Shown here: positions 3,161 to 40,724 of the stretch, piece after piece
Numbering within the stretch: the first letter of the stretch is position 1
Layout: every line of letters starts with the position of its first letter
IMG/VR virus record: IMGVR_UViG_2565956726_000012
Coordinates: 1-40,724 of that record
From: a virus
Lineage: Duplodnaviria; Heunggongvirae; Uroviricota; Caudoviricetes
DNA length: 40,724 nt
Direction: 5' to 3' (one strand)
The notes under the pieces: generated by a model
Databases searched by the model: none
What the model was told of the DNA's origin: nothing
What the model saw: the letters and a program-made list of their open reading frames with translations, nothing else
Made by a program: the position numbers and the translations under genes

Positions 3161-5623
3161 TCAATTCCCTGTTAATTGCAAAACTTGCTCTTCCAGCTTT
3201 TTAACCCTGCGTCTCATCATCGCAGATTCCAGAATCAGAGCCTCTTCATAACGGATACCGTAACATTCACCAGCCTCGACGGCTTCGCGTACCAGAACCT
3301 TTGTCTGTATAAGTGGGTAAACTCCTGCAGAATGCTCTTCTTCCGTCACATCCCTGTATTCTGCCGGGGCCTCATTCCACTTGTCATAACAGATAAATGC
3401 CAGTCGTGACACATCTATGCCTTCATTCTGAAATACACTGATAACATGCTGCGCAACTGCACCAAAGTGCCATCTTGCTCCGTCTTTACCTTTCACTTCG
3501 ATCCTGTCAAGGTACTGGTATGAAACCCATTCCACTCTTTCCCATGCGTCCAGTATTTTCTCATCAATAACCTCTGGAGCAGTCTTGAAACGCGCATCGG
3601 ACAGCACCGTAAACGCTGACTGGGTAAATCCCCCCGACCATGCACGACCAGCCAACCCAAGAGAATAAGTATTCGTTGTCGATGGTGTCATGGCTGAATC
3701 AGAAAACTGTATATATTCTGAATTTCCAGTAGATATTCGAATATTTCCATTTATTAGCGACATAGTGCCTTTAGTATTATCACTATTGAATAATTTCAAT
3801 TGCGAACTTATACCGCCTCCCACAGCCAGAGATACATCGCCTTCAGCAAGCATTCTGAATTTATCTGCAGAAACAAGCGTCTGGTTAGCAAGGTTAAAAT
3901 ATTTAACCCACCATTCAAAACGCCCTGACATAGTCCCAACGTACTGACCAAGCGCAGGGACGTGAACAACATTGCTATTTGTAGTGCCGTCTATACTGGA
4001 AATACCAGTCACCGCTGATGCAGAACTCAGAATATTATTTCTGTCACCCGGATGTTTAATTTCAACAAAGTTCCTGATACACCCTTCCTCGAAGGTAACC
4101 ACGCCGGAAGAACTATACATGGGGAATATTGACGCATAATTACTGCGTGCAGCATCTAAGAAACGAATGGTTGTAGATGTCTGCAGATCTCCTGATTCAT
4201 TTTTCCCATCACACCCAGTCATTAGAATATTACTGGCAATATTATTATTTCCCTGAACGGTGACGCCGTGCGCCTGCTTTGCGTCCGATTCAGAGTAATC
4301 AACCAGCACATCCGAAATCAGGTTACCAGTCCCCTTGCCAACAACTACTGCGGCGTATTTTGGGTTGTTAGCCATTACACTGCTAATGATATTATTCGTT
4401 GGGGCAGTTTCCGTCTCAGTTCCATTGTAAACAACGTGCTGACACTCTTCACCAATAACATTGCTGACAATGTTATATTTTGCTGCTGTTTTAAGTTCCA
4501 CTGCACCAAACTGAGGATAATTTCTGGCTATCACACCATCAATTAGCGTATTTTGCGATGAATCAAAAAGCACACAACCTGCTTTTTTATTATTTGCGAA
4601 CCCTAAATACTCTCCTCTTATATCTCTAACAATGTAACCTGACGGAATACCATTATCCGGATAAGCGATCAAGCTAAATCCTGGTCCTCGCGTATTTGTA
4701 AATCTGATATTTTTAACCGATACATCATGGCCACCTGAAAATGACACCTGGTGTCCCTGCACACTATCATCTGATTTATTTCCCATAATTGTTAGCGTAC
4801 TAAGCATGCCACCATCGGGCATGTTAAAAACCAGATGATTACCATCTCTGTCATACTGTTTTATCGTTCCCCCACCTGTTCCGTACAAGCCACAACGTGA
4901 AAGAGAAACTAAAGATGTATTGAATACCCCTTCCGGAACAAAAACACTGCTAAACGAATGTAATGATTTTGTAAAAGCATCCTTGTTATCATTTAAGATT
5001 CCATTTTGAGCTCCAAAATCCTTAATGCTGACACCATCACGCATCTTATCCTGGAACGTTCTGTATACCGCTCCAGAACCATACTGAATAAACCAACCAA
5101 AACCACCAATAACTCCGGCGATTGCAGCATCGACATAATTACGCATTGAGCGATTATTTACAGCGTCCTGCTCAAGTGATGGATCGGCAAGGTTAGATAT
5201 TCTGTTTTGCTTTGCATCGTAATATTTTGCAAGCAAAGATGGTTTCATCAATGCACGTCTGAACCACCCAAAACATCGCTGGATCAGCATCGTCAGGTAG
5301 TCAAATGCATCCTCATGAACTTCGGGGAAAAATTTTCCCTGATTGCGAAGATCAGTCTCCTGCACCACATCAAGCACACGCTCTATCGTGATTCGCCAGC
5401 CAGCAGCAAGCGGCGACGGAAGAACCACTGCACCGCCACTATAAGTTCCCGCCCCTGTTACCGTATAACCAGCATCCAGCACTAGTTTTGTAACGTTACC
5501 GTTAAGGTCAGACACCTGAACAACCAGGTCGGATTTTTTGAAAATACGGAAGGTATACGGAAATGATGTCGTAACGCCGTTACCTGTGTATTCGTTGTGG
5601 TCAACTTCGGTTGAGACCGTCAT
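3161..5623 (-). CDS. Tailspike/tail fiber with T7 gp17-like N-terminal adaptor domain, central beta-helix-type region and C-terminal intramolecular chaperone (peptidase S74) domain
   Basis: N-terminus NEYTGNGVTTSFPYTFRIFKKSDLVVQV resembles T7-type fiber N-termini; C-terminal SDARFK motif followed by a coiled-coil tail typical of self-cleaving chaperone domains; GGAG RBS. Confidence 0.8.
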   Translation of the reverse strand: MTVSTEVDHNEYTGNGVTTSFPYTFRIFKKSDLVVQVSDLNGNVTKLVLDAGYTVTGAGTYSGGAVVLPSPLAAGWRITIERVLDVVQETDLRNQGKFFPEVHEDAFDYLTMLIQRCFGWFRRALMKPSLLAKYYDAKQNRISNLADPSLEQDAVNNRSMRNYVDAAIAGVIGGFGWFIQYGSGAVYRTFQDKMRDGVSIKDFGAQNGILNDNKDAFTKSLHSFSSVFVPEGVFNTSLVSLSRCGLYGTGGGTIKQYDRDGNHLVFNMPDGGMLSTLTIMGNKSDDSVQGHQVSFSGGHDVSVKNIRFTNTRGPGFSLIAYPDNGIPSGYIVRDIRGEYLGFANNKKAGCVLFDSSQNTLIDGVIARNYPQFGAVELKTAAKYNIVSNVIGEECQHVVYNGTETETAPTNNIISSVMANNPKYAAVVVGKGTGNLISDVLVDYSESDAKQAHGVTVQGNNNIASNILMTGCDGKNESGDLQTSTTIRFLDAARSNYASIFPMYSSSGVVTFEEGCIRNFVEIKHPGDRNNILSSASAVTGISSIDGTTNSNVVHVPALGQYVGTMSGRFEWWVKYFNLANQTLVSADKFRMLAEGDVSLAVGGGISSQLKLFNSDNTKGTMSLINGNIRISTGNSEYIQFSDSAMTPSTTNTYSLGLAGRAWSGGFTQSAFTVLSDARFKTAPEVIDEKILDAWERVEWVSYQYLDRIEVKGKDGARWHFGAVAQHVISVFQNEGIDVSRLAFICYDKWNEAPAEYRDVTEEEHSAGVYPLIQTKVLVREAVEAGECYGIRYEEALILESAMMRRRVKKLEEQVLQLTGN

Positions 5624-5727: not shown

Positions 5728-5742
5728 TTACCTTTCAGGTAA
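5728..5742. promoter_or_regulatory. Operator copy A (TTACCTTTCAGGTAA) of the ATTACC-N5-GGTAAT family
   Basis: Perfect 17-bp palindrome ATTACCTTTCAGGTAAT; lies between minus-strand TTGAAA -35-like hexamer and the tailspike gene, and upstream of the plus-strand island. Confidence 0.6.
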
Positions 5743-5779
5743 TTTTCAAAACGTGCTGGATAGCAAACAAATTATTTGA

Positions 5780-5799
5780 TACTGTATAAATATACAGTT
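5780..5799. promoter_or_regulatory. LexA (SOS) box TACTGTATAAATATACAGTT
   Basis: CTGT-N8-ACAG with AT-rich spacer and TA flanks, near-consensus; 20 bp upstream of ATG 5820. Confidence 0.7.
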
Positions 5800-5819
5800 A
5801 TTGCATGGAGAAGATTAAG

Positions 5820-6077
5820 ATGCAGCAGTATCACTATCCACTGGAAGAGGGATTTACCGAAAGGATTCACACGCCGGGAGGCGTCAGGTCACTGGTGGAG
5901 GGATCGCACTTGATGAAATTACTCCGGGATCTCGATAAGGATGGATTTAATGTCGATGGCCCACTTGCCGAACTGACTGCACTGATTAACTACGTCACCA
6001 GCTCACAGATGTCTATGCAGGATCTGCAAACACATCTCGACTATTGTGCCGAACAATTACGAAAACAAACCAGATAA
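5820..6077 (+). CDS. Small standalone antirepressor C-terminal (ANT/KilAC-like) domain protein; candidate SOS-inducible antirepressor
   Basis: 85 aa; clearly alignable to the C-terminus of the downstream Bro-N antirepressor (GVRSLVEGSHLMKLLRDLDKDGFNVDG..AELT vs GVLGLTENSLLMNLLNQLQDDGHDVSG..AELT); GGAG RBS before ATG 5820; LexA box upstream. Confidence 0.55.
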   Translation: MQQYHYPLEEGFTERIHTPGGVRSLVEGSHLMKLLRDLDKDGFNVDGPLAELTALINYVTSSQMSMQDLQTHLDYCAEQLRKQTR

Positions 6078-6080
6078 GGT

Positions 6081-6123
6081 TTGCAATTACCAAGTGAAGT
6101 GCTTATATTTACCTTTGCGGTAA
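6081..6123 (+). promoter_or_regulatory. Sigma70-like promoter (TTGCAA-17-TATATT) with operator copy B (TTACCTTTGCGGTAA) abutting the -10
   Basis: Near-consensus -35/-10 with 17-bp spacer; operator starts at last base of -10. Confidence 0.6.
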
Positions 6124-6236
6124 ATTTACATCGCACTCCTCTTGTGCCATAGTAATCGGGCACTGGCAAAATCCAGTGCCGGGATTGGCGTCCCGAGTTA
6201 CTAAGTGGCGCATACCACGCCAGACGTGGTTTTTTT
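6116..6236 (+). ncRNA. Putative structured small RNA or leader element (c4/sar-like antirepressor control RNA) ending in an intrinsic terminator
   Basis: No ORF; hairpins GGCACTGG/CCAGTGCC (6159-6180) and CGGGA/TCCCG (6180-6195); terminator at 6214-6236; lies between a strong promoter and the ant gene. Confidence 0.35.
6214..6236 (+). terminator. Rho-independent terminator upstream of ant
   Basis: Stem ACCACG/CGTGGT, loop CCAGA, followed by 7 T. Confidence 0.65.
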
Positions 6237-6392
6237 ATGCGTTAAGCACAGCTATATCCGAATTATGGTGGGCTGGGCAGGGGTCCGAAAGGACGCCGGT
6301 ACCACTTAGGCCGGTACGCCAACCTTGTCCAGTTCACCACCAGTAATTGGCGTTGCGGTGGTGATTAAAATCACTAAGTGGAGATAACCACC

Positions 6393-7103
6393 ATGGCTAA
6401 TGCTCAAACTGCCATCTTCAAATTTGAATCTGTTAACCCTATCCGTTCCATCATTATCGATGGCCAACCATGGTTTGTAGCCCAAGACGTTTGTAGTGCG
6501 CTGCGCATCCAAAACGTCACCCAAGCACTTGAAAAACTGGATGATGATGAAAGGTCTATGTTCAACATAGGGCATGAATATCGTGCAATTTTTGACAGCC
6601 GAGTAAAAGAGATCAACATCATCTCCGAGTCAGGCCTCTACACACTGATCCTCCGCTGCCGCGACGCAGTGACACCGGGCACTATCCCCTACCGCTTTCG
6701 TAAATGGGTTACAGGTGAGGTTCTTCCTCAGATCCGCCGCACCGGAAGTTACATTAAAAACTCGCTCCCGCAGGAAGAACGCATAAAGATGGTTGCCGAC
6801 CAGGTTGCAAACGCCACAGCATCAGCAGTGATGCAGGCAATGAAGATAGAGAACAAAACCTACAGCGCCCCGCTGAAGCCCGGCTACCGCAGCCTGATTC
6901 ATTCTCCGTCTGGTGTTCTCGGCCTGACGGAGAACTCATTGCTGATGAATCTGCTGAATCAGTTGCAGGACGACGGGCATGATGTATCGGGCGCGGCGGC
7001 GGAGCTGACCACCATGTTTTGCTACATCGTTGGTGTGAGCAAATGCCTGCGTGATATCCAGACGCACGCGGAGTACATCAACGACAAGGCAGGGTTCTTC
7101 TGA
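6393..7103 (+). CDS. ant: Antirepressor, Bro-N N-terminal domain plus ANT-like C-terminal domain
   Basis: Bro-N-like N-terminus (FKFESVNPIRSIIIDGQPWFVAQDVCSALRI); GGAG RBS 9 nt before ATG 6393; the GTG at 6378 in the track is an unlikely start. Confidence 0.8.
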   Translation: MANAQTAIFKFESVNPIRSIIIDGQPWFVAQDVCSALRIQNVTQALEKLDDDERSMFNIGHEYRAIFDSRVKEINIISESGLYTLILRCRDAVTPGTIPYRFRKWVTGEVLPQIRRTGSYIKNSLPQEERIKMVADQVANATASAVMQAMKIENKTYSAPLKPGYRSLIHSPSGVLGLTENSLLMNLLNQLQDDGHDVSGAAAELTTMFCYIVGVSKCLRDIQTHAEYINDKAGFF

Positions 7104-7251: not shown

Positions 7252-7431
7252 ATGCGAAACGAAAAATTGCAGATGCGTAGAGCGCAAGCTGCCGCAAGAC
7301 GTTCTTTCAATGGAAGCGTAGAGTACGTAAAAGTTACTATGGCAAAAGATCACGCAAGTCGCGTATCCCGCGCTTTCTTTGATTCTCGTAACAATAAGGA
7401 AAATTATGAGTTCGTCTGCGTCGCAGAATGA
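7252..7431 (+). CDS. Small basic protein (59 aa), candidate antitoxin-like partner
   Basis: GAGGTAA RBS 5 nt before ATG 7252; Arg/Lys-rich; 3-prime end overlaps start of next gene by 26 nt; below the 60-aa cut-off of the ORF track. Confidence 0.35.
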   Translation: MRNEKLQMRRAQAAARRSFNGSVEYVKVTMAKDHASRVSRAFFDSRNNKENYEFVCVAE

Positions 7432-7951
7432 TAAAAATCAAATTGTCAGATATAAGGGTCGAGTATTGCATACGCAAAATTTCTCGGCCCTTTGTGCATC
7501 TGATCTTGAGCTGAAGAAAGTATCTGATGCCTTTGCCCAGTATTGGAAAACGGGATACCATCCATCTCTTGGTAAAGATGCTGCATTTGCTCGTCCGACA
7601 GAAATGCTTAAACTAAATGTCAGGCATGCTCATGTCGATAACCAAGACTATATTCCAGAAGATAGTGATAAAAAACACACTGGTAAAAAATCATCTTGGG
7701 ATGCATGGAAAAATATAGCGTCTGTACAAGTAAAATGCATACCAACAAGTGATTGCTTTTTAGTTTATTCGGTAAATCACAATCGTGATGCGCTGGTTAT
7801 GTTTTTTGTTGACGCAGATGCCCACAACATAACTGAGCAAGAAGAGTTTAAAGAGGCAGCAATCACTATCAGTTATCAATTCTTTGAGAAAACAAAAACA
7901 GAACCAATGCCTTTAGAAGAAGATCTTTTTTCTGATAAATGGAAGGAATAA
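7406..7951 (+). CDS. Hypothetical protein with possible YafO-like toxin N-terminal region plus acidic C-terminal extension
   Basis: AAGGAAA RBS before ATG 7406; segment GKDAAFARPTEMLKLNVRHAHVD recalls a YafO-family motif from memory only; AT-rich codon usage; own promoter and terminator. Confidence 0.45.
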   Translation: MSSSASQNDKNQIVRYKGRVLHTQNFSALCASDLELKKVSDAFAQYWKTGYHPSLGKDAAFARPTEMLKLNVRHAHVDNQDYIPEDSDKKHTGKKSSWDAWKNIASVQVKCIPTSDCFLVYSVNHNRDALVMFFVDADAHNITEQEEFKEAAITISYQFFEKTKTEPMPLEEDLFSDKWKE

Positions 7952-8806: not shown

Positions 8807-11359
8807 TTATTTACCTAGCATGAACTGCGATGGTGGGATCAGAAAGTCGTTACCCTGCTCACGCTCAACACGGCGCTGATAACGCTCAAGAGAGCCTGGG
8901 TCAAGGGCATCTTGTATCCGGTTCAATATTAAACCATTCATCGCCGTACGAAGCCAGAACACGTTGAGGAATGGCGTATTGTCAAGTGCCGTGCGATACC
9001 AGTCACCCAAATCTGCATCCCCTCTCGTGGTCTGCTGGAGCAGCGTGATAATGCTGTCAGCGTTCGATGCTGCTGGCCCCATTAGCGACGTAACCGGCCC
9101 GGCCCCCATGCGGTTGACCTCGCCAAACATGAAGTCACCCAAGATGCCAAGACCGCCCCCCTGAGATGCGGCTGCGAGAAACGTCTTGGCATCTGCCGGG
9201 CGTGGTGTTTGCCCTTTCAGCATGAGTTTTGACTGCATGGAGATATAACCAAACATAGTCGCCCAGACAAAGAGGTTTGCAGCACCAAGGAAAGCCCCCT
9301 TCCCGTTACGTAGCAGCGCATTCGTCAGCGATCCGGTTTTCGACTCACCAAGCCCAGCAGGAATATAACCACGCCCGAATACTTCGCGTCCTAGTACGTT
9401 CTGCATGAAGCTTGCAGTGAACGATTTGTACTGACCAGCGAATCGTATTGCTTCCCCAGCCACCGTTCCTGGCACCGTGCCCATCTTCATAAACGCCTGC
9501 GTGCGATCGCCAGGCTCTGACATGGCGATATTCAGGCGGTCAAGGATGTAGCCGCGCAACTGCCCTTCCAATTGATCGCGTGCGTCAGCGATAGCGCGCT
9601 GCGTTGGTTTGATCCCCTTACTCTCTACATAACCGGCAATCACTTCGTCAGGCACGCCGCGGATGCCGCTGGTCGTCATGAACTTACGACCTTCGCTATC
9701 GGCCATGTCCATGTTGCGAAAAATTTCCCACTCACGTTCGCCAATACCGTGCAGATCCAGCACGCGTCGCAGGTCTTCCGGTAGCCGCGCATGAGACTGG
9801 TCAGCATTCTTTGCAAGCCAGTTGGTTATCATCATGGCGTTGCTGTTGCGACCGCTCTCGGTCCAGAAGTTCATGAGGTTGTACTTAAAGAAAAGCTGCT
9901 GCGCGCGACCAAGCTTTCCATTCAGCGTGTCATCACCAGATATGCGCCGGATGATTTCCTGCGTCATGGAGTCGGAATAAACTCCGATAGAGGAAAGGAT
10001 CTCTTTCTGCTCCGCGCTGTTGTAACGCGTGAAGCGGCCTCTCATAGCACCAAGCAACGCCTGCATAAAATTCTGCCCTTGGTAGCGCATCTCGGTAGCG
10101 GCGATAGGCACGTCGTTAAACGATGAGATTACCGCGCCACCAAGTTGGCTCATACGCAACCAGCCGCGTACAGCCGCCGACGCATTGGCCCAGCCTACGC
10201 TGCCAGGAATATTTAGCGAGCCGTCAACCTGCGGCATTACGGTACGGTTAATGCGACGCACCTTCGTCATGTAGTCAGCCAACGCTGCCGGTCTTCCGGA
10301 TTTGCTGATATCTTCAGCAATGGCGTCCGTCAGGTACTTAAACATGTTCTGTGGGTTAGTGCCCAGTACGCGCATCATGCCCGTTGTGCGGGCAGCGCTG
10401 TTTAAGCCACCAAACAGCGCTTCTCGCAGGCTGCCGGTGCCGAATTGCTGGTTGTACTCGTGCCACGAGATACCATCTTTGAAGTGCAAAATTCGCTCTT
10501 GGCTGGCGCGTTTAGCTGCGTTCGCCGATCCCTTAAAGCCATTCATCCAATCGGGCTTTTCAGATGTAAGATGCACGCCGGAAGCCAGCCCGTTATAAAT
10601 GTTACGCATGAACTGCTCGCGGTCAGCCACGCCGTCAAAAGTGCGCTCATCAAGGCGCGGGAGAATAGCATTTCGCCATGCTTCATAACCTGCGGCGCGG
10701 ATCTTCATGATGTCGTGTGACTGGCGCACTATATAGCCCGGCTCTTTGCGTATCCATGCCCCGGCGCGGTTCTCATCAATGCGCGCAGTTTCCTGCCATT
10801 TCATGATGATTTGTGCAGCGCTTACGGATTGCTTTGTCATACCGTCAGTTGACTGCCCGCGCCCTATGCGCCACATTGCATCGGCAATTTCCCGGTCATT
10901 GCTGCCGCTGGCGATGAATTGCACCAGCCCGGCACGGTCAAAATCGTAGTTGATACCGGAATGATACTTGCCGCGCAGTTGCGCCACCTCCGAAGATACC
11001 GACCGGCGGGCGCCGGTACGCGCATCGTTGCGGCCAACCAGCATTGCTTCAAGCCCGATATCCGGGCGGTCTTTCCAGATAGTACGAAGCTCTCTAAGTC
11101 GTTGTGCGGCAATACGGGCGTTGATTGCCTTATTGCGAGCCTCAATCTGTTTTGCCAGCATATCGGCATTGCTCAGTTCTTCCGCTGCGCGCATCGCGGC
11201 CTCTTCCAGAGACAGCGCCTCATTGGTCGCCAGAATTCGCCTAGTGGTGTCGTTCATGTCACGCACCAGCGACTCCATCTCATCGGAAGAAAGCTCGCGA
11301 CCAGCGGCAGCATTTACACTGCGCTCGCACTGCGTCAAAAATTCGTTTGCTGCCATCAC
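8807..11359 (-). CDS. Large internal virion/ejection protein
   Basis: 850 aa; in operon after the transglycosylase-domain protein; overlapping start/stop with neighbours. Confidence 0.65.
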   Translation of the reverse strand: MMAANEFLTQCERSVNAAAGRELSSDEMESLVRDMNDTTRRILATNEALSLEEAAMRAAEELSNADMLAKQIEARNKAINARIAAQRLRELRTIWKDRPDIGLEAMLVGRNDARTGARRSVSSEVAQLRGKYHSGINYDFDRAGLVQFIASGSNDREIADAMWRIGRGQSTDGMTKQSVSAAQIIMKWQETARIDENRAGAWIRKEPGYIVRQSHDIMKIRAAGYEAWRNAILPRLDERTFDGVADREQFMRNIYNGLASGVHLTSEKPDWMNGFKGSANAAKRASQERILHFKDGISWHEYNQQFGTGSLREALFGGLNSAARTTGMMRVLGTNPQNMFKYLTDAIAEDISKSGRPAALADYMTKVRRINRTVMPQVDGSLNIPGSVGWANASAAVRGWLRMSQLGGAVISSFNDVPIAATEMRYQGQNFMQALLGAMRGRFTRYNSAEQKEILSSIGVYSDSMTQEIIRRISGDDTLNGKLGRAQQLFFKYNLMNFWTESGRNSNAMMITNWLAKNADQSHARLPEDLRRVLDLHGIGEREWEIFRNMDMADSEGRKFMTTSGIRGVPDEVIAGYVESKGIKPTQRAIADARDQLEGQLRGYILDRLNIAMSEPGDRTQAFMKMGTVPGTVAGEAIRFAGQYKSFTASFMQNVLGREVFGRGYIPAGLGESKTGSLTNALLRNGKGAFLGAANLFVWATMFGYISMQSKLMLKGQTPRPADAKTFLAAASQGGGLGILGDFMFGEVNRMGAGPVTSLMGPAASNADSIITLLQQTTRGDADLGDWYRTALDNTPFLNVFWLRTAMNGLILNRIQDALDPGSLERYQRRVEREQGNDFLIPPSQFMLGK

Positions 11360-24545: not shown

Positions 24546-24604
24546 ATCAATGACTCCGTACGCAATTAAATTATTACCAATTTAACCACATATGATTTAT
24601 TTAT

Positions 24605-24641
24605 CGTAGAAGGTTGACATTTAACGCGTGAATTATTACCT
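24605..24641. promoter_or_regulatory. TTGACA -35-like element plus operator copy C (TTACCTTTCAGGTAA)
   Basis: Identical 15-bp core to copy A; lies between portal-side operon and the tRNA island. Confidence 0.5.
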
Positions 24642-24972
24642 TTCAGGTAACTAAAGAGCTCATTCTGGTTACTAACCTGACTGGCTTGTCGTTAAATTAA
24701 ACAGGTGGAGTGAGCTTTTATTTTGAGCAGTACGGCGTATGGCACATGCGCCGATAGCGGTCTGGATACGTTTAAGGGGCACCCTCCCTTGCTCGGGCAA
24801 ACGAACCAGGTAGCCGGAATGTGCAAGTCGAGCGGTTTTATTCCGCGCACGGGGATTCACCATCCCGGCGATTCGGTGTGACGCCTCGGAAGAGACGAGG
24901 GTACAACGATGAGAGCATTTATGGAGCCGCGACAAAGTGTGGCGCCTTAACAGGCTAAGTGCTCTCAGCGTT

Positions 24973-25049
24973 GTGGCATTAGCTCAGTCGGACAGAGCAA
25001 CCGCCTTCTAAGCGGTTGGTCGCAGGTTCGAATCCTGCATGCCACGCCA
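24973..25049 (+). tRNA. tRNA-Arg (anticodon UCU), phage-borne
   Basis: 77 nt cloverleaf: 7-bp acceptor stem GTGGCAT/ATGCCAC, D-arm GCTC..GAGC, anticodon loop CTTCTAA, T-arm GCAGG-TTCGAAT-CCTGC, discriminator G plus CCA; closely resembles argU-type tRNA. Confidence 0.9.
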
Positions 25050-25092
25050 GAATCACGCCTAAGGACCGTGATGCCAGAAGTTCCAGGGGCTT

Positions 25093-25134
25093 GGCGGTGA
25101 TGGTTTCCCTTGAAGAACTATCACCGCCCTTTTT
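25093..25134 (+). terminator. Rho-independent terminator after tRNA
   Basis: Stem GGCGGTGAT/ATCACCGCC followed by CTTTTT. Confidence 0.55.
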
Positions 25135-25179
25135 ACAGCAGGACGCCATTGCGATGACTTCATGCTGTAAACCAGTACA

Positions 25180-25203
25180 GCCCGGTTCGCCGGGCATTTT
25201 TTT
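25180..25203 (+). terminator. Rho-independent terminator
   Basis: Stem GCCCGG/CCGGGC with TTCG loop followed by ATTTTTTT. Confidence 0.7.
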
Positions 25204-34423: not shown

Positions 34424-34654
34424 TCATGAGTAGAAGAAGTATGCCAGTTCTGCTTTTGAGCGCAGCCATTGTCTTGTTTTACAGGCTTTAAAAAGCCCAT
34501 TCATCAATACTTTACCTGGCATTTTGCGCTTACCTGTTAAGTGAGTCTGGATATAGTGACTCGTCGTTCCGGCTTCCTGTGCGAAGGCTTCACGCTCATC
34601 CGGAGTAAGTGCAAGCCAGTGCTTTTTGAAATCGAAATGTCCGTTATCGCTCAT
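34424..34654 (-). CDS. Cro-like HTH regulator
   Basis: 76 aa; HTH-like LTPDEREAFAQEAGTTSHYIQTHLTG; divergent from repressor across the operator cluster. Confidence 0.55.
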   Translation of the reverse strand: MSDNGHFDFKKHWLALTPDEREAFAQEAGTTSHYIQTHLTGKRKMPGKVLMNGLFKACKTRQWLRSKAELAYFFYS

Positions 34655-34690: not shown

Positions 34691-34753
34691 TCACCCATAA
34701 GGTAACAAAAATCAAGGATAGTTACCTATGAGGTGCATTTACCTGTTGGGTAA
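34691..34753. promoter_or_regulatory. Immunity-region operator cluster: three adjacent copies (34691-34705 imperfect, 34722-34736, 34739-34753)
   Basis: TCACCCATAAGGTAA, TTACCTATGAGGTGC, TTACCTGTTGGGTAA between divergent cro-like and repressor genes. Confidence 0.65.
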
Positions 34754-34808: not shown

Positions 34809-35393
34809 ATGAAAAGTATCCAGGACGTCCGCAGGCAAAATCTCAACGACTTGATCGACCGTGAATTCAATGGTGTTCAGACGCGGATGGCAGAAAAACT
34901 TGGAACTCAGGCAAATCTGGTAAACCGCTGGGCTCTTGGCAAGAAGGTTATCGGCGACCAGGTTGCGCGAAAAATTGAAGCTGCCGCCAATAAACCCCGT
35001 AACTGGCTTGATATCGATCGCTCGCTTTCTCAGGAAGGTTTTCAGCCTGTCGGCCCAAGCGACATTGGTCAGCTGGCGGCTCACAACCTGGAACGCTGGA
35101 TGAGCGAAAGCCGCGACCTTTCAACGCAGGGAAAACTTCACCGCGCATCCGGCGTCGCCCAGGTGACAATCAGCCGCCTGTTAAACAATGAGGTCAGCGT
35201 TTCCATTTCCACCCTGGAGAATGTTGCATCCGCATTCGGGCGTCACGGATATGAACTACTGATTCACCCGCACGACCCTGCGACTATCAACTATGACCGC
35301 TCACGCTACGCATTGTTACCCGAAACCGAGAAAGCAAAGATCGAAAGTTACATTGAATTTGTCATCAACCAGAACGAAAAAAGCAAACAATAA
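34809..35393 (+). CDS. Prophage repressor with two tandem XRE-type HTH domains, no S24 peptidase domain
   Basis: Two HTH motifs (QTRMAEKLGTQANLVNRWALGKK and QGKLHRASGVAQVTISRLLNNE); no Ala-Gly/Ser-Lys autocleavage module; divergent from cro-like gene. Confidence 0.75.
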   Translation: MKSIQDVRRQNLNDLIDREFNGVQTRMAEKLGTQANLVNRWALGKKVIGDQVARKIEAAANKPRNWLDIDRSLSQEGFQPVGPSDIGQLAAHNLERWMSESRDLSTQGKLHRASGVAQVTISRLLNNEVSVSISTLENVASAFGRHGYELLIHPHDPATINYDRSRYALLPETEKAKIESYIEFVINQNEKSKQ

Positions 35394-39473: not shown

Positions 39474-40724
39474 TTATTCCCCCGCCATCCACTTCTCAAA
39501 CTTCGACGGGGAGAACGGAATCAGATCCGTATGCTCCCCGTCAATCCATGAATCAATCATATCGGCCCACTGCTGCAACATGTAGGCGCGCTGTCTGGCG
39601 TATTCCGCTTTGTTATATACGGCGCGCACACCTTTCTGCTCATGTGCCAGAGCCTTTTCAATCCAGTCTGAAGGATAACCAGCCTCATGCAACAACGTAC
39701 TGGCTGTACGGCGCATATCATGTACAGTGAAGTCCTGAATATGCTCACCATCTTCATTTATTATTTTCACCGTTCTGTCGATCAGAGAGTTCAGCGCGGC
39801 ATTAGATAATGGCTTCCGGAAATTGTAACGACCAGGAACCAGATATTCACTTCCACCAGCGCACATCTGCAACCCGACCAATATATCCTGTGCCTGTTTA
39901 GGCAGGTAAATAACGTGCGCCCGGCTTCCCTTCATGCGGTCTGGAGGAATTGTCCATGTCCATTTTTTAAAATCTATTTCATCCCACGTTGCATTGGTGA
40001 ATTCGCCCTTACGAACCATAGTGATAAGCACCAGTTTTAAAGCCATTTTCATAGTGCCCATAGCACCAATGGCATCCAGCGTGCGGAAGAACAGGCCAAT
40101 TTCTTCTGGTGTCAGTGTTCGCTCTCGTGGTTTAAATATGGCGATAGACGAAGGTTTAATGTCAGCCGCAGGATTAAACAAACCATGACCACGGTCATTG
40201 GCGTGACGGTATACGCTACTGATGATCTCCCTGGCCTGCACTGCTGTTGCCCGGCCACCGCGTTCGACAATCCGGTCACACAAATCACGAACCATCGATG
40301 TGGTAATTTCAGCCATCATTTTATTGCCAAGAACCGGAAGTATGTCACGGTCGATCACCGCCTGTTTCATTGCGCGGGTACTGTCAGCCAGGATGACGTG
40401 TTTCATATAACTGTCGGTATGTACCGCAAACGTCTCGGCACCACGAATCTTTTTGATACCGTCACGTTTAGCCGCAGCCGGTGACTGGCCTGCTTTAAGC
40501 AGCTTCTTTGCAGCAATCAGTTCTTCTCGCGCTTCTGCCAGGCTGATACCGTCACGCCCATACTGCCCGATTACCAGTGTTTCGCGGCGACCGTTGATAC
40601 GGTAGTCATAGCGAAACGAGACCGTGCCTGACGTAAGCACAGCTACATACAGCCCGTCACGATCGGAGACCTTGTACAGTTTGTCCTGCGGCTTGAGGTT
40701 TTTTAATTTTGTATCGGTAAGCAC
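39474..40724 (-). CDS. int: Tyrosine integrase (P4-like family), 5-prime end at window edge
   Basis: N-terminal LTDTKLKNLKP...DGLYVAVLTSG...FRYDYR typical of P4-like integrase arm-binding domain; C-terminal catalytic region with HxxR and terminal Tyr region; GTG at the very last window codon so the true start may lie outside. Confidence 0.85.
   Translation of the reverse strand: MLTDTKLKNLKPQDKLYKVSDRDGLYVAVLTSGTVSFRYDYRINGRRETLVIGQYGRDGISLAEAREELIAAKKLLKAGQSPAAAKRDGIKKIRGAETFAVHTDSYMKHVILADSTRAMKQAVIDRDILPVLGNKMMAEITTSMVRDLCDRIVERGGRATAVQAREIISSVYRHANDRGHGLFNPAADIKPSSIAIFKPRERTLTPEEIGLFFRTLDAIGAMGTMKMALKLVLITMVRKGEFTNATWDEIDFKKWTWTIPPDRMKGSRAHVIYLPKQAQDILVGLQMCAGGSEYLVPGRYNFRKPLSNAALNSLIDRTVKIINEDGEHIQDFTVHDMRRTASTLLHEAGYPSDWIEKALAHEQKGVRAVYNKAEYARQRAYMLQQWADMIDSWIDGEHTDLIPFSPSKFEKWMAGE

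Follow-up and report, generated by a model that had tools for sequence, protein, structure and literature searches.

The closest described counterpart of the locus analyzed here is the Ant/Rep pair of phage SPC32H (Kim & Ryu 2013, J Virol 87:11775; Kim et al. 2016, PNAS 113:E2480; PDB 5D50 and 5D4Z). For the SPC32H genes, which are orthologous to those of the present locus, LexA control, the non-cleavage of Rep and an Ant-Rep complex have been reported. According to the 2016 structure, as it is summarized in papers citing it, an Ant tetramer is joined with two Rep dimers, and the DNA-binding Rep tetramer is broken by way of the Rep C-terminal domain. For the class as a whole, a review states that self-cleavage of LexA leads to synthesis of Ant, which inhibits the repressor through protein-protein contact. 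A non-cleavable repressor combined with a small LexA-controlled antirepressor encoded outside the immunity region is also described for GfoA/GfhA of Gifsy-1 and Gifsy-3 (PMC3121763) and for Tum of coliphage 186. These phages are lambdoid siphoviruses or a P2-like myovirus, and their likeness to the present locus is one of mechanism, not of membership. The SPC32H Ant is reportedly distinct in structure from the Gifsy and Tum antirepressors.

Other known systems are analogues of a neighboring Bro-N gene rather than of the small ant gene. These are the immI region of P1 and P7, organized as c4 antisense RNA-icd-ant, and the isrK-orf45-anrP region of Gifsy-1 (Hershko-Shalev et al. 2016, PMC4825925). 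The immI region of P22, in which Ant is under the control of Mnt, Arc and sar, likewise provides a podovirus with a second, non-SOS antirepressor beside the tailspike gene.

The DNA analyzed here is a stretch of 40,724 nucleotides, referred to below as the window. A preliminary description of it had predicted induction of the Gifsy type, in which the SOS response derepresses a small antirepressor that inactivates a non-cleavable repressor. The logic of that prediction stands by close orthology and conservation, and the functional architecture of the Gifsy and 186 systems is indeed present, with ant located 29 kb away from rep, a LexA box in front of ant and a Rep that lacks an S24 domain. The family, however, is that of SPC32H Ant/Rep; searches of Pfam, PHROG and PDB with Ant and Rep returned the SPC32H family only. 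As judged from sequence, the locus is a member of this family, as every sequence-level defining feature that was tested is present, and it is very probably an SOS-responsive induction module orthologous to the SPC32H Ant/Rep/LexA system.

The ant gene and its LexA box

Positions 1-1276 of the window carry the host genes yfgH and yfgI, a segment of the E. coli chromosome, and a complete prophage fills the rest, with its integrase gene (39474-40724) at the right end. A related genome has the prophage between yfgI and guaA. The prophage is a phiV10/epsilon15-like phage (Uetakevirus) with E. coli as its host. Its ant region is 91-97% identical to those of the phiV10-like Escherichia phages HEMP4, phiv142-3, TL-2011b and phiV10 and about 76% identical to those of the Salmonella phages epsilon15, SPN1S and SPC32H, all three of which belong to the genus Uetakevirus. 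The tailspike gene runs leftward from position 5623 and the 85-amino-acid (aa) gene rightward from position 5820. The features of the ant locus are as follows.

5728-5742, no strand: palindrome TTACCTTTCAGGTAA, probable Rep operator, between ant and the divergent tailspike gene
5757-5785, plus strand: candidate ant promoter, with TGGATA at 5757-5762, a 17-bp spacer, TG at 5777-5778 and TACTGT at 5780-5785
5780-5799, no strand: LexA (SOS) box TACTGTATAAATATACAGTT, recognized by consensus match, uniqueness and conservation
5808-5811, plus strand: Shine-Dalgarno sequence GGAG, 8 nucleotides before ATG 5820, with GCATGGAGAAGA conserved in relatives
5820-6077, plus strand: ant, 85-aa antirepressor, orthologue of SPC32H Ant, with matches to PDB 5D50_E and PHROG 450

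The preliminary description had placed an 85-aa open reading frame (ORF) 20 bp past the LexA box, and this agrees with a gene that starts at ATG 5820 and extends to 6077. The mechanical ORF call is 5805-6077 (90 aa); the start at ATG 5820 is preferred because of the GGAG at 5808-5811, the protein known from PDB and SPC32H, and the annotations of phiv142-3 and RefSeq. In a phmmer search against PDB, the product matched chain E of 5D50, "Anti-repressor protein" (E=1.7e-47). It is 89% identical over 83 aa to the 86-aa product of SPC32H_020, ant (E=2e-57), and it matches PHROG 450 across positions 5-88 of 88 (E=1e-47). The gene stands alone, divergent from the tailspike gene, and is syntenic with its counterparts in SPC32H, epsilon15, phiV10 and phiv142-3.

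The small protein had been described from the sequence as a stand-alone C-terminal domain of the neighboring Bro-N antirepressor. The resemblance itself was borne out, with 42% identity over 74 aa (E=2e-15) and matches of both proteins to full-length PHROG 450, but the small protein is not a detached piece of Bro-N. It is a complete, widely conserved Ant; the fusion is the Bro-N protein, which bears an Ant-like module. Decay of the ORF from a second copy of the Bro-N gene was rejected, because the ORF has full length relative to PHROG 450 and the crystallized protein and is conserved in genera that have no Bro-N gene.

The claim of a near-consensus LexA box in front of this gene was upheld. 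The sequence TACTGTATAAATATACAGTT at 5780-5799 agrees at 18 of 20 positions with the E. coli LexA consensus TACTGTATATATATACAGTA and has the palindromic CTGT-N8-ACAG form with an AT-rich core that is expected of an E. coli-type SOS box. When the window was searched with the 20-mer TACTGTATATATATACAGTA at three or fewer mismatches, this site, with its two mismatches, was the sole match in the 40.7 kb, and the same search of 100 shuffles of the window gave zero matches. It is possible to read the CTGT-N8-ACAG as a chance palindrome in AT-rich intergenic DNA and to leave the control of ant to Rep alone, acting at the operator-like site nearby. By chance, 0.57 copies of the bare 8-base pattern are expected in the window, which has two, and the conserved Rep-operator-like palindrome at 5728 lies only 38 bp upstream of the box; a full 20-mer match of this quality, however, was absent from the shuffles, the half-sites are invariant across genera while the spacer drifts, and one half-site change separates SPC32N from SPC32H. 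A chance origin is therefore exceedingly improbable, and we treat the site as a LexA box.

The second copy of CTGT-N8-ACAG, at 25165, was rejected as a LexA site. It abuts a terminator hairpin, faces no promoter and is probably a chance match, one such copy being about what chance would supply. The adjoining region (24560-25200) contains a non-coding stretch of about 400 bp, at whose start are a consensus TTGACA and the operator-like palindrome of 24636; a tRNA gene (24973-25046) and the terminator come next. In the annotation of a related RefSeq prophage, the tRNA is tRNA-Arg.

In an upstream alignment that included SPC32N, the box at 5780-5799 was column-for-column orthologous among the window, phiV10, SPC32H and epsilon15. 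Its N8 core is ATAAATAT here versus ATGTTTAT in SPC32H. The box of SPC32N differs from that of SPC32H by a single C-to-A change in the ACAG half-site. This half-site mutation is said to make Ant expression constitutive and to have been the route by which LexA control was discovered.

The pattern extends to more distant relatives. IMG/VR contains 298 relatives of Ant, and the LexA box was intact in 80 of 84 related loci, with the CTGT and ACAG half-sites invariant and the N8 core drifting. The remaining four are SPC32N, two artefacts of contig ends and a locus where an insertion element lies inside the box. At the last of these (IMGVR_UViG_2563366870_000004, about positions 1960-2000), an insertion-sequence-like end replaces the left half of the box and leaves only the ACAG half-site before ant, which amounts to a natural disruption of LexA control. 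In another record, locus L024, the contig starts with the Nextera transposase adapter AGATGTGTATAAGAGACAG, which runs straight into the middle of the LexA box, an assembly artefact in IMG/VR. In the Enterobacter phages Tyrion and BUCT554, where DNA identity has fallen to about 75%, CTGT-N8-ACAG is still perfect. The Klebsiella phages ST11-OXA245phi3.2 and BUCT711 have ATGT-N8-ACAG, with one half-site mismatched, and in their branch the control by LexA may be weaker. The ribosome-binding site (RBS) region of ant also deviates in these two phages.

The promoter of ant is less conspicuous than its LexA box. A standard sigma-70 scan (at least 9 of 12 positions) found no site at the LexA box; a relaxed hexamer scan gave the candidate listed above, which scores 7 of 12 plus the TG motif and has as its -10-like hexamer TACTGT, the left half of the LexA box. 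The TGGATA, TG and TACTGT elements are invariant in the window, phiV10, SPC32H and epsilon15 and largely kept in the Enterobacter and Klebsiella relatives. Several other hexamer pairs chosen by hand, with TATAAA or TATACA as the -10 element, were set aside, their -35 partners being poor or unconserved. TGGATA-17-TGnTACTGT is the only phage-invariant promoter candidate, and it would overlap the LexA box. The TTACCTTTCAGGTAA palindrome, which does not vary among eight phages, precedes the -35-like hexamer by 15 bp and may serve ant, the divergent tailspike gene or both. Because this conserved Rep-operator-like palindrome is so close to the promoter, ant may have a second input, one that the simple model of LexA control omits.

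The repressor Rep and its operators

The repressor gene lies 29 kb to the right of ant, next to a divergent cro-like gene.

34424-34654, minus strand: divergent cro/early-regulator-like gene, 76 aa, with a match to PHROG 35, "transcriptional repressor" (E=5.6e-13)
34691-34753, no strand: operator-like palindromes in the rep/cro-like intergenic region, at 34691 and 34739, with a degenerate copy near 34722
34809-35393, plus strand: rep, 194-aa non-cleavable repressor, homologue of SPC32H Rep, with matches to PDB 5D50_A and 5D4Z_A

The earlier statement that this repressor has tandem helix-turn-helix (HTH) domains and no peptidase domain proved correct: an HTH_3 domain covers aa 106-147, a weaker YdaS-like HTH covers aa 21-61, and there were zero matches to Peptidase_S24. 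Rep matches chain A of PDB 5D50, "Repressor" (E=3.5e-42), and, in its C-terminal part, 5D4Z_A (E=3.6e-20), and its full-length identity to the rep product, SPC32H_041, is 43%. The same genome therefore encodes a repressor of the Rep type, with a DNA-binding N-terminus, a C-terminal domain homologous to the one that serves in Ant binding and tetramerization in SPC32H, and no autocleavage domain. A hidden cleavable repressor was also sought: neither Rep nor any of ten further candidate regulators and early ORFs showed an S24 domain, and the annotation of a closely related RefSeq prophage lists no such domain either.

The palindrome TTACC-N5-GGTAA is present in 15 copies in the window, versus 0.68 expected, with sites at 5728, 6109, 7177, 24636, 27796/27814, 32346/32408, 34354, 34691/34739 and 35451/35513. 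Copies cluster in the rep-cro intergenic region, and further ones flank ant and the Bro-N gene. The motif is enriched in SPC32H too, despite the divergence of the two Rep proteins, and SPC32H has the same layout, with three palindromes between rep and SPC32H_042, the gene whose position is equivalent to that of the cro-like gene here. In the epsilon15 record, the homologous palindrome is annotated as a protein_bind feature, "repressor". TTACC-N5-GGTAA is probably the operator of Rep.

Taken together, the likenesses to SPC32H extend over the genus Uetakevirus, the gene order, the operator motif, the 89%-identical Ant, the full-length Rep homologue and the orthologous LexA box before ant. The differences are the host (Salmonella for SPC32H versus E. 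coli here), the divergence of Rep, the N8 core of the box and, in SPC32H and epsilon15 alike, the lack of the IsrK/C4/Bro-N cassette that here follows ant. The following steps would make up the switch. In the lysogen, host LexA would sit on the 5780-5799 box, covering what are probably the -10 element and the start of ant transcription, and keep ant silent, while Rep, an HTH protein of two domains that lacks a peptidase for self-cleavage, would repress the lytic promoters through TTACC-N5-GGTAA operators. DNA damage would activate RecA and provoke self-cleavage of LexA, which would allow transcription of ant. Ant would then build up, bind Rep and free it from its operators. We infer from orthology that the same steps operate in this prophage, and the promoter hexamers are likewise predictions.

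The unequal conservation of the two partners bears directly on the last step. Because Rep is only 43% identical to its SPC32H counterpart, versus 89% for Ant, retention of the Ant-Rep contact is here an inference. The same inequality would be expected if Ant acted mainly or only in trans, on the repressors of co-resident prophages in a Gifsy-style cross-talk, or if the resident Rep had escaped Ant, and non-cognate repressors are known targets of antirepressors (Lemire et al. 2011, PMC3121763). The homology of Rep is, however, full length and includes the crystallized C-terminus that serves in Ant binding and tetramerization (5D4Z_A), Ant and this type of Rep co-occur in the same genus, and the TTACC-N5-GGTAA operator motif is common to the window prophage and SPC32H. 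We consider a trans-acting Ant, or an escaped Rep, very unlikely and favor an Ant directed at the resident Rep.

A second Ant module in an IsrK/C4/Bro-N cassette

A cassette containing regulatory RNAs and a second antirepressor gene lies directly downstream of ant.

6109-6153, plus strand: start of the cassette, with operator-like palindrome TTACCTTTGCGGTAA at 6109-6123 and promoter-like TTTACA-17-CATAGT at 6125-6153
6160-6236, plus strand: IsrK-like RNA, with b1 at 6185-6191, a1 at 6201-6208 and an intrinsic terminator at 6214-6236
6261-6344, plus strand: C4-type antisense RNA, matching Rfam RF01695 at 66 bits (gathering cut-off, 45)
6347-6383, plus strand: C4 target sites, b2 TTGGCGT at 6347-6353 and a2 CTAAGTGG at 6374-6381, exact complementary 7- and 8-mers
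6393-7103, plus strand: Bro-N antirepressor, 236 aa, with a Pfam Bro-N match (E=1.9e-19) and an Ant-like C-terminal module at about aa 153-234

The IsrK-like RNA was recognized by Rfam model RF01394, that of the Hfq-binding RNA IsrK, with 67.2 bits, above the gathering cut-off of 50, and the c4-a1b1 model RF03163 scored 44.3 bits, just below its cut-off of 46.7. Two segments of the C4 RNA are complementary to target sites, the loop CCACUUAG to both copies of CTAAGTGG (6201 and 6374) and the single-stranded ACGCCAA to both copies of TTGGCGT (6185 and 6347). The cassette thus has two pairs of C4 target sites, the downstream pair lying over the RBS of the regulated gene, as in the immI region of P1. 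The Bro-N gene starts at ATG 6393, and its GGAG (6380-6383) is overlapped by the a2 site, which is predicted to act directly on the Bro-N ribosome-binding site. No icd- or orf45-like leader ORF was found between the end of C4 (6344) and the Bro-N start (6393).

This organization resembles P1 immI and Gifsy-1 isrK in its IsrK-like leader with terminator, its C4 RNA, its a1/b1 and a2/b2 sites with a2 over the RBS, and its downstream antirepressor. It differs from them in the absence of an icd/orf45-like ORF, in an antirepressor that consists of Bro-N with an SPC32H-type Ant C-terminus, and in the position of the cassette, which follows a LexA-controlled ant directly, without an intervening terminator. 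In P22, the comparable antirepressor is controlled by the Mnt and Arc proteins and sar RNA, whereas IsrK and C4 RNAs occupy that place here, and the P22 repressor C2 is RecA cleavable, unlike the Rep of this prophage.

The Bro-N protein matches PHROG 130, "anti-repressor Ant", and its last ~80 residues, which share the conserved Ant core, align with the whole of PHROG 450 (E=6e-36). In about 80 relatives, the N-terminal (Bro-N) part is mosaic or replaced and the Ant-like C-terminus is conserved. The phage thus has two Ant modules under two different controls. Several observations on these modules may be noted. In E. coli AR_0085, a second antirepressor joins a different N-terminal domain to the same Ant module (94% identical in nucleotides). 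The DGHDVSGAAAEL motif of the Bro-N Ant-like module is identical to the motif of the small Ants of Klebsiella phages. The gene containing the module lies at 6393-7103 in the window, and the module lies at 10685-10942 in the related locus L087. Between the Bro-N gene and the virion genes, a cargo-like region at 7.2 to 8.8 kb in the window varies among relatives and includes a 190-aa ORF (7379-7951, plus strand) with a weak Pfam match to the YafO toxin of type II toxin-antitoxin systems, at an E value of 1.4e-5, just above the cut-off.

A gene that carries a full-length Ant module, lies directly downstream of ant and has its own regulatory RNAs could itself be the main inducer, in which case induction would be driven mainly by the Bro-N::Ant-module protein (6393-7103), under IsrK/C4 RNA control, and the small LexA-controlled Ant would have an accessory or redundant role. 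SPC32H and epsilon15, however, lack the Bro-N cassette and have ant and its LexA box, and in SPC32H it is Ant that has been described as the inducer. The box and the ant coding sequence are visibly constrained in 80 of 84 loci, and the phiV10 Bro-N is annotated in a shorter form (194 aa plus a separate 29-aa ORF), which suggests that it is dispensable. That the Bro-N protein is the main inducer is extremely unlikely on these grounds, and the small Ant is retained as the principal link between the SOS response and Rep.

The two antirepressors might nevertheless be coupled. A scan for terminators found none from the ant stop codon to the IsrK terminator, and because of this, ant transcripts may include the a1/b1 decoy. 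It is possible, if on balance unlikely, that in the phiV10-like lineage, SOS-driven ant transcripts carry or yield the IsrK-like RNA, titrate C4 and unlock translation of the second antirepressor. If this is true, it would constitute an RNA-sponge feed-forward step that joins the SOS signal to an immI-type switch.

Annotation of the switch in E. coli prophages

The LexA-Ant-Rep switch was already known, having been described in SPC32H in 2013 and given a structure in 2016, and its occurrence in an E. coli prophage adds no new biology. The practical value of the present case is in annotation, since ant is under-annotated in public databases. Of 5,426 complete E. coli genomes, 529 (~10%) carry the ant locus, and PGAP/RefSeq labels its product "hypothetical protein" there; most phage records give the same label, and PHROG 450 (phrog_450), the family of Ant, is labelled "unknown function". 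Because the repressor has no peptidase domain and ant is labelled as hypothetical or of unknown function, prophages with this locus could be mis-scored as having no route to SOS induction. The pairing of ant with a second Ant module under IsrK/C4 control is the only part of the locus that might reward experiment.
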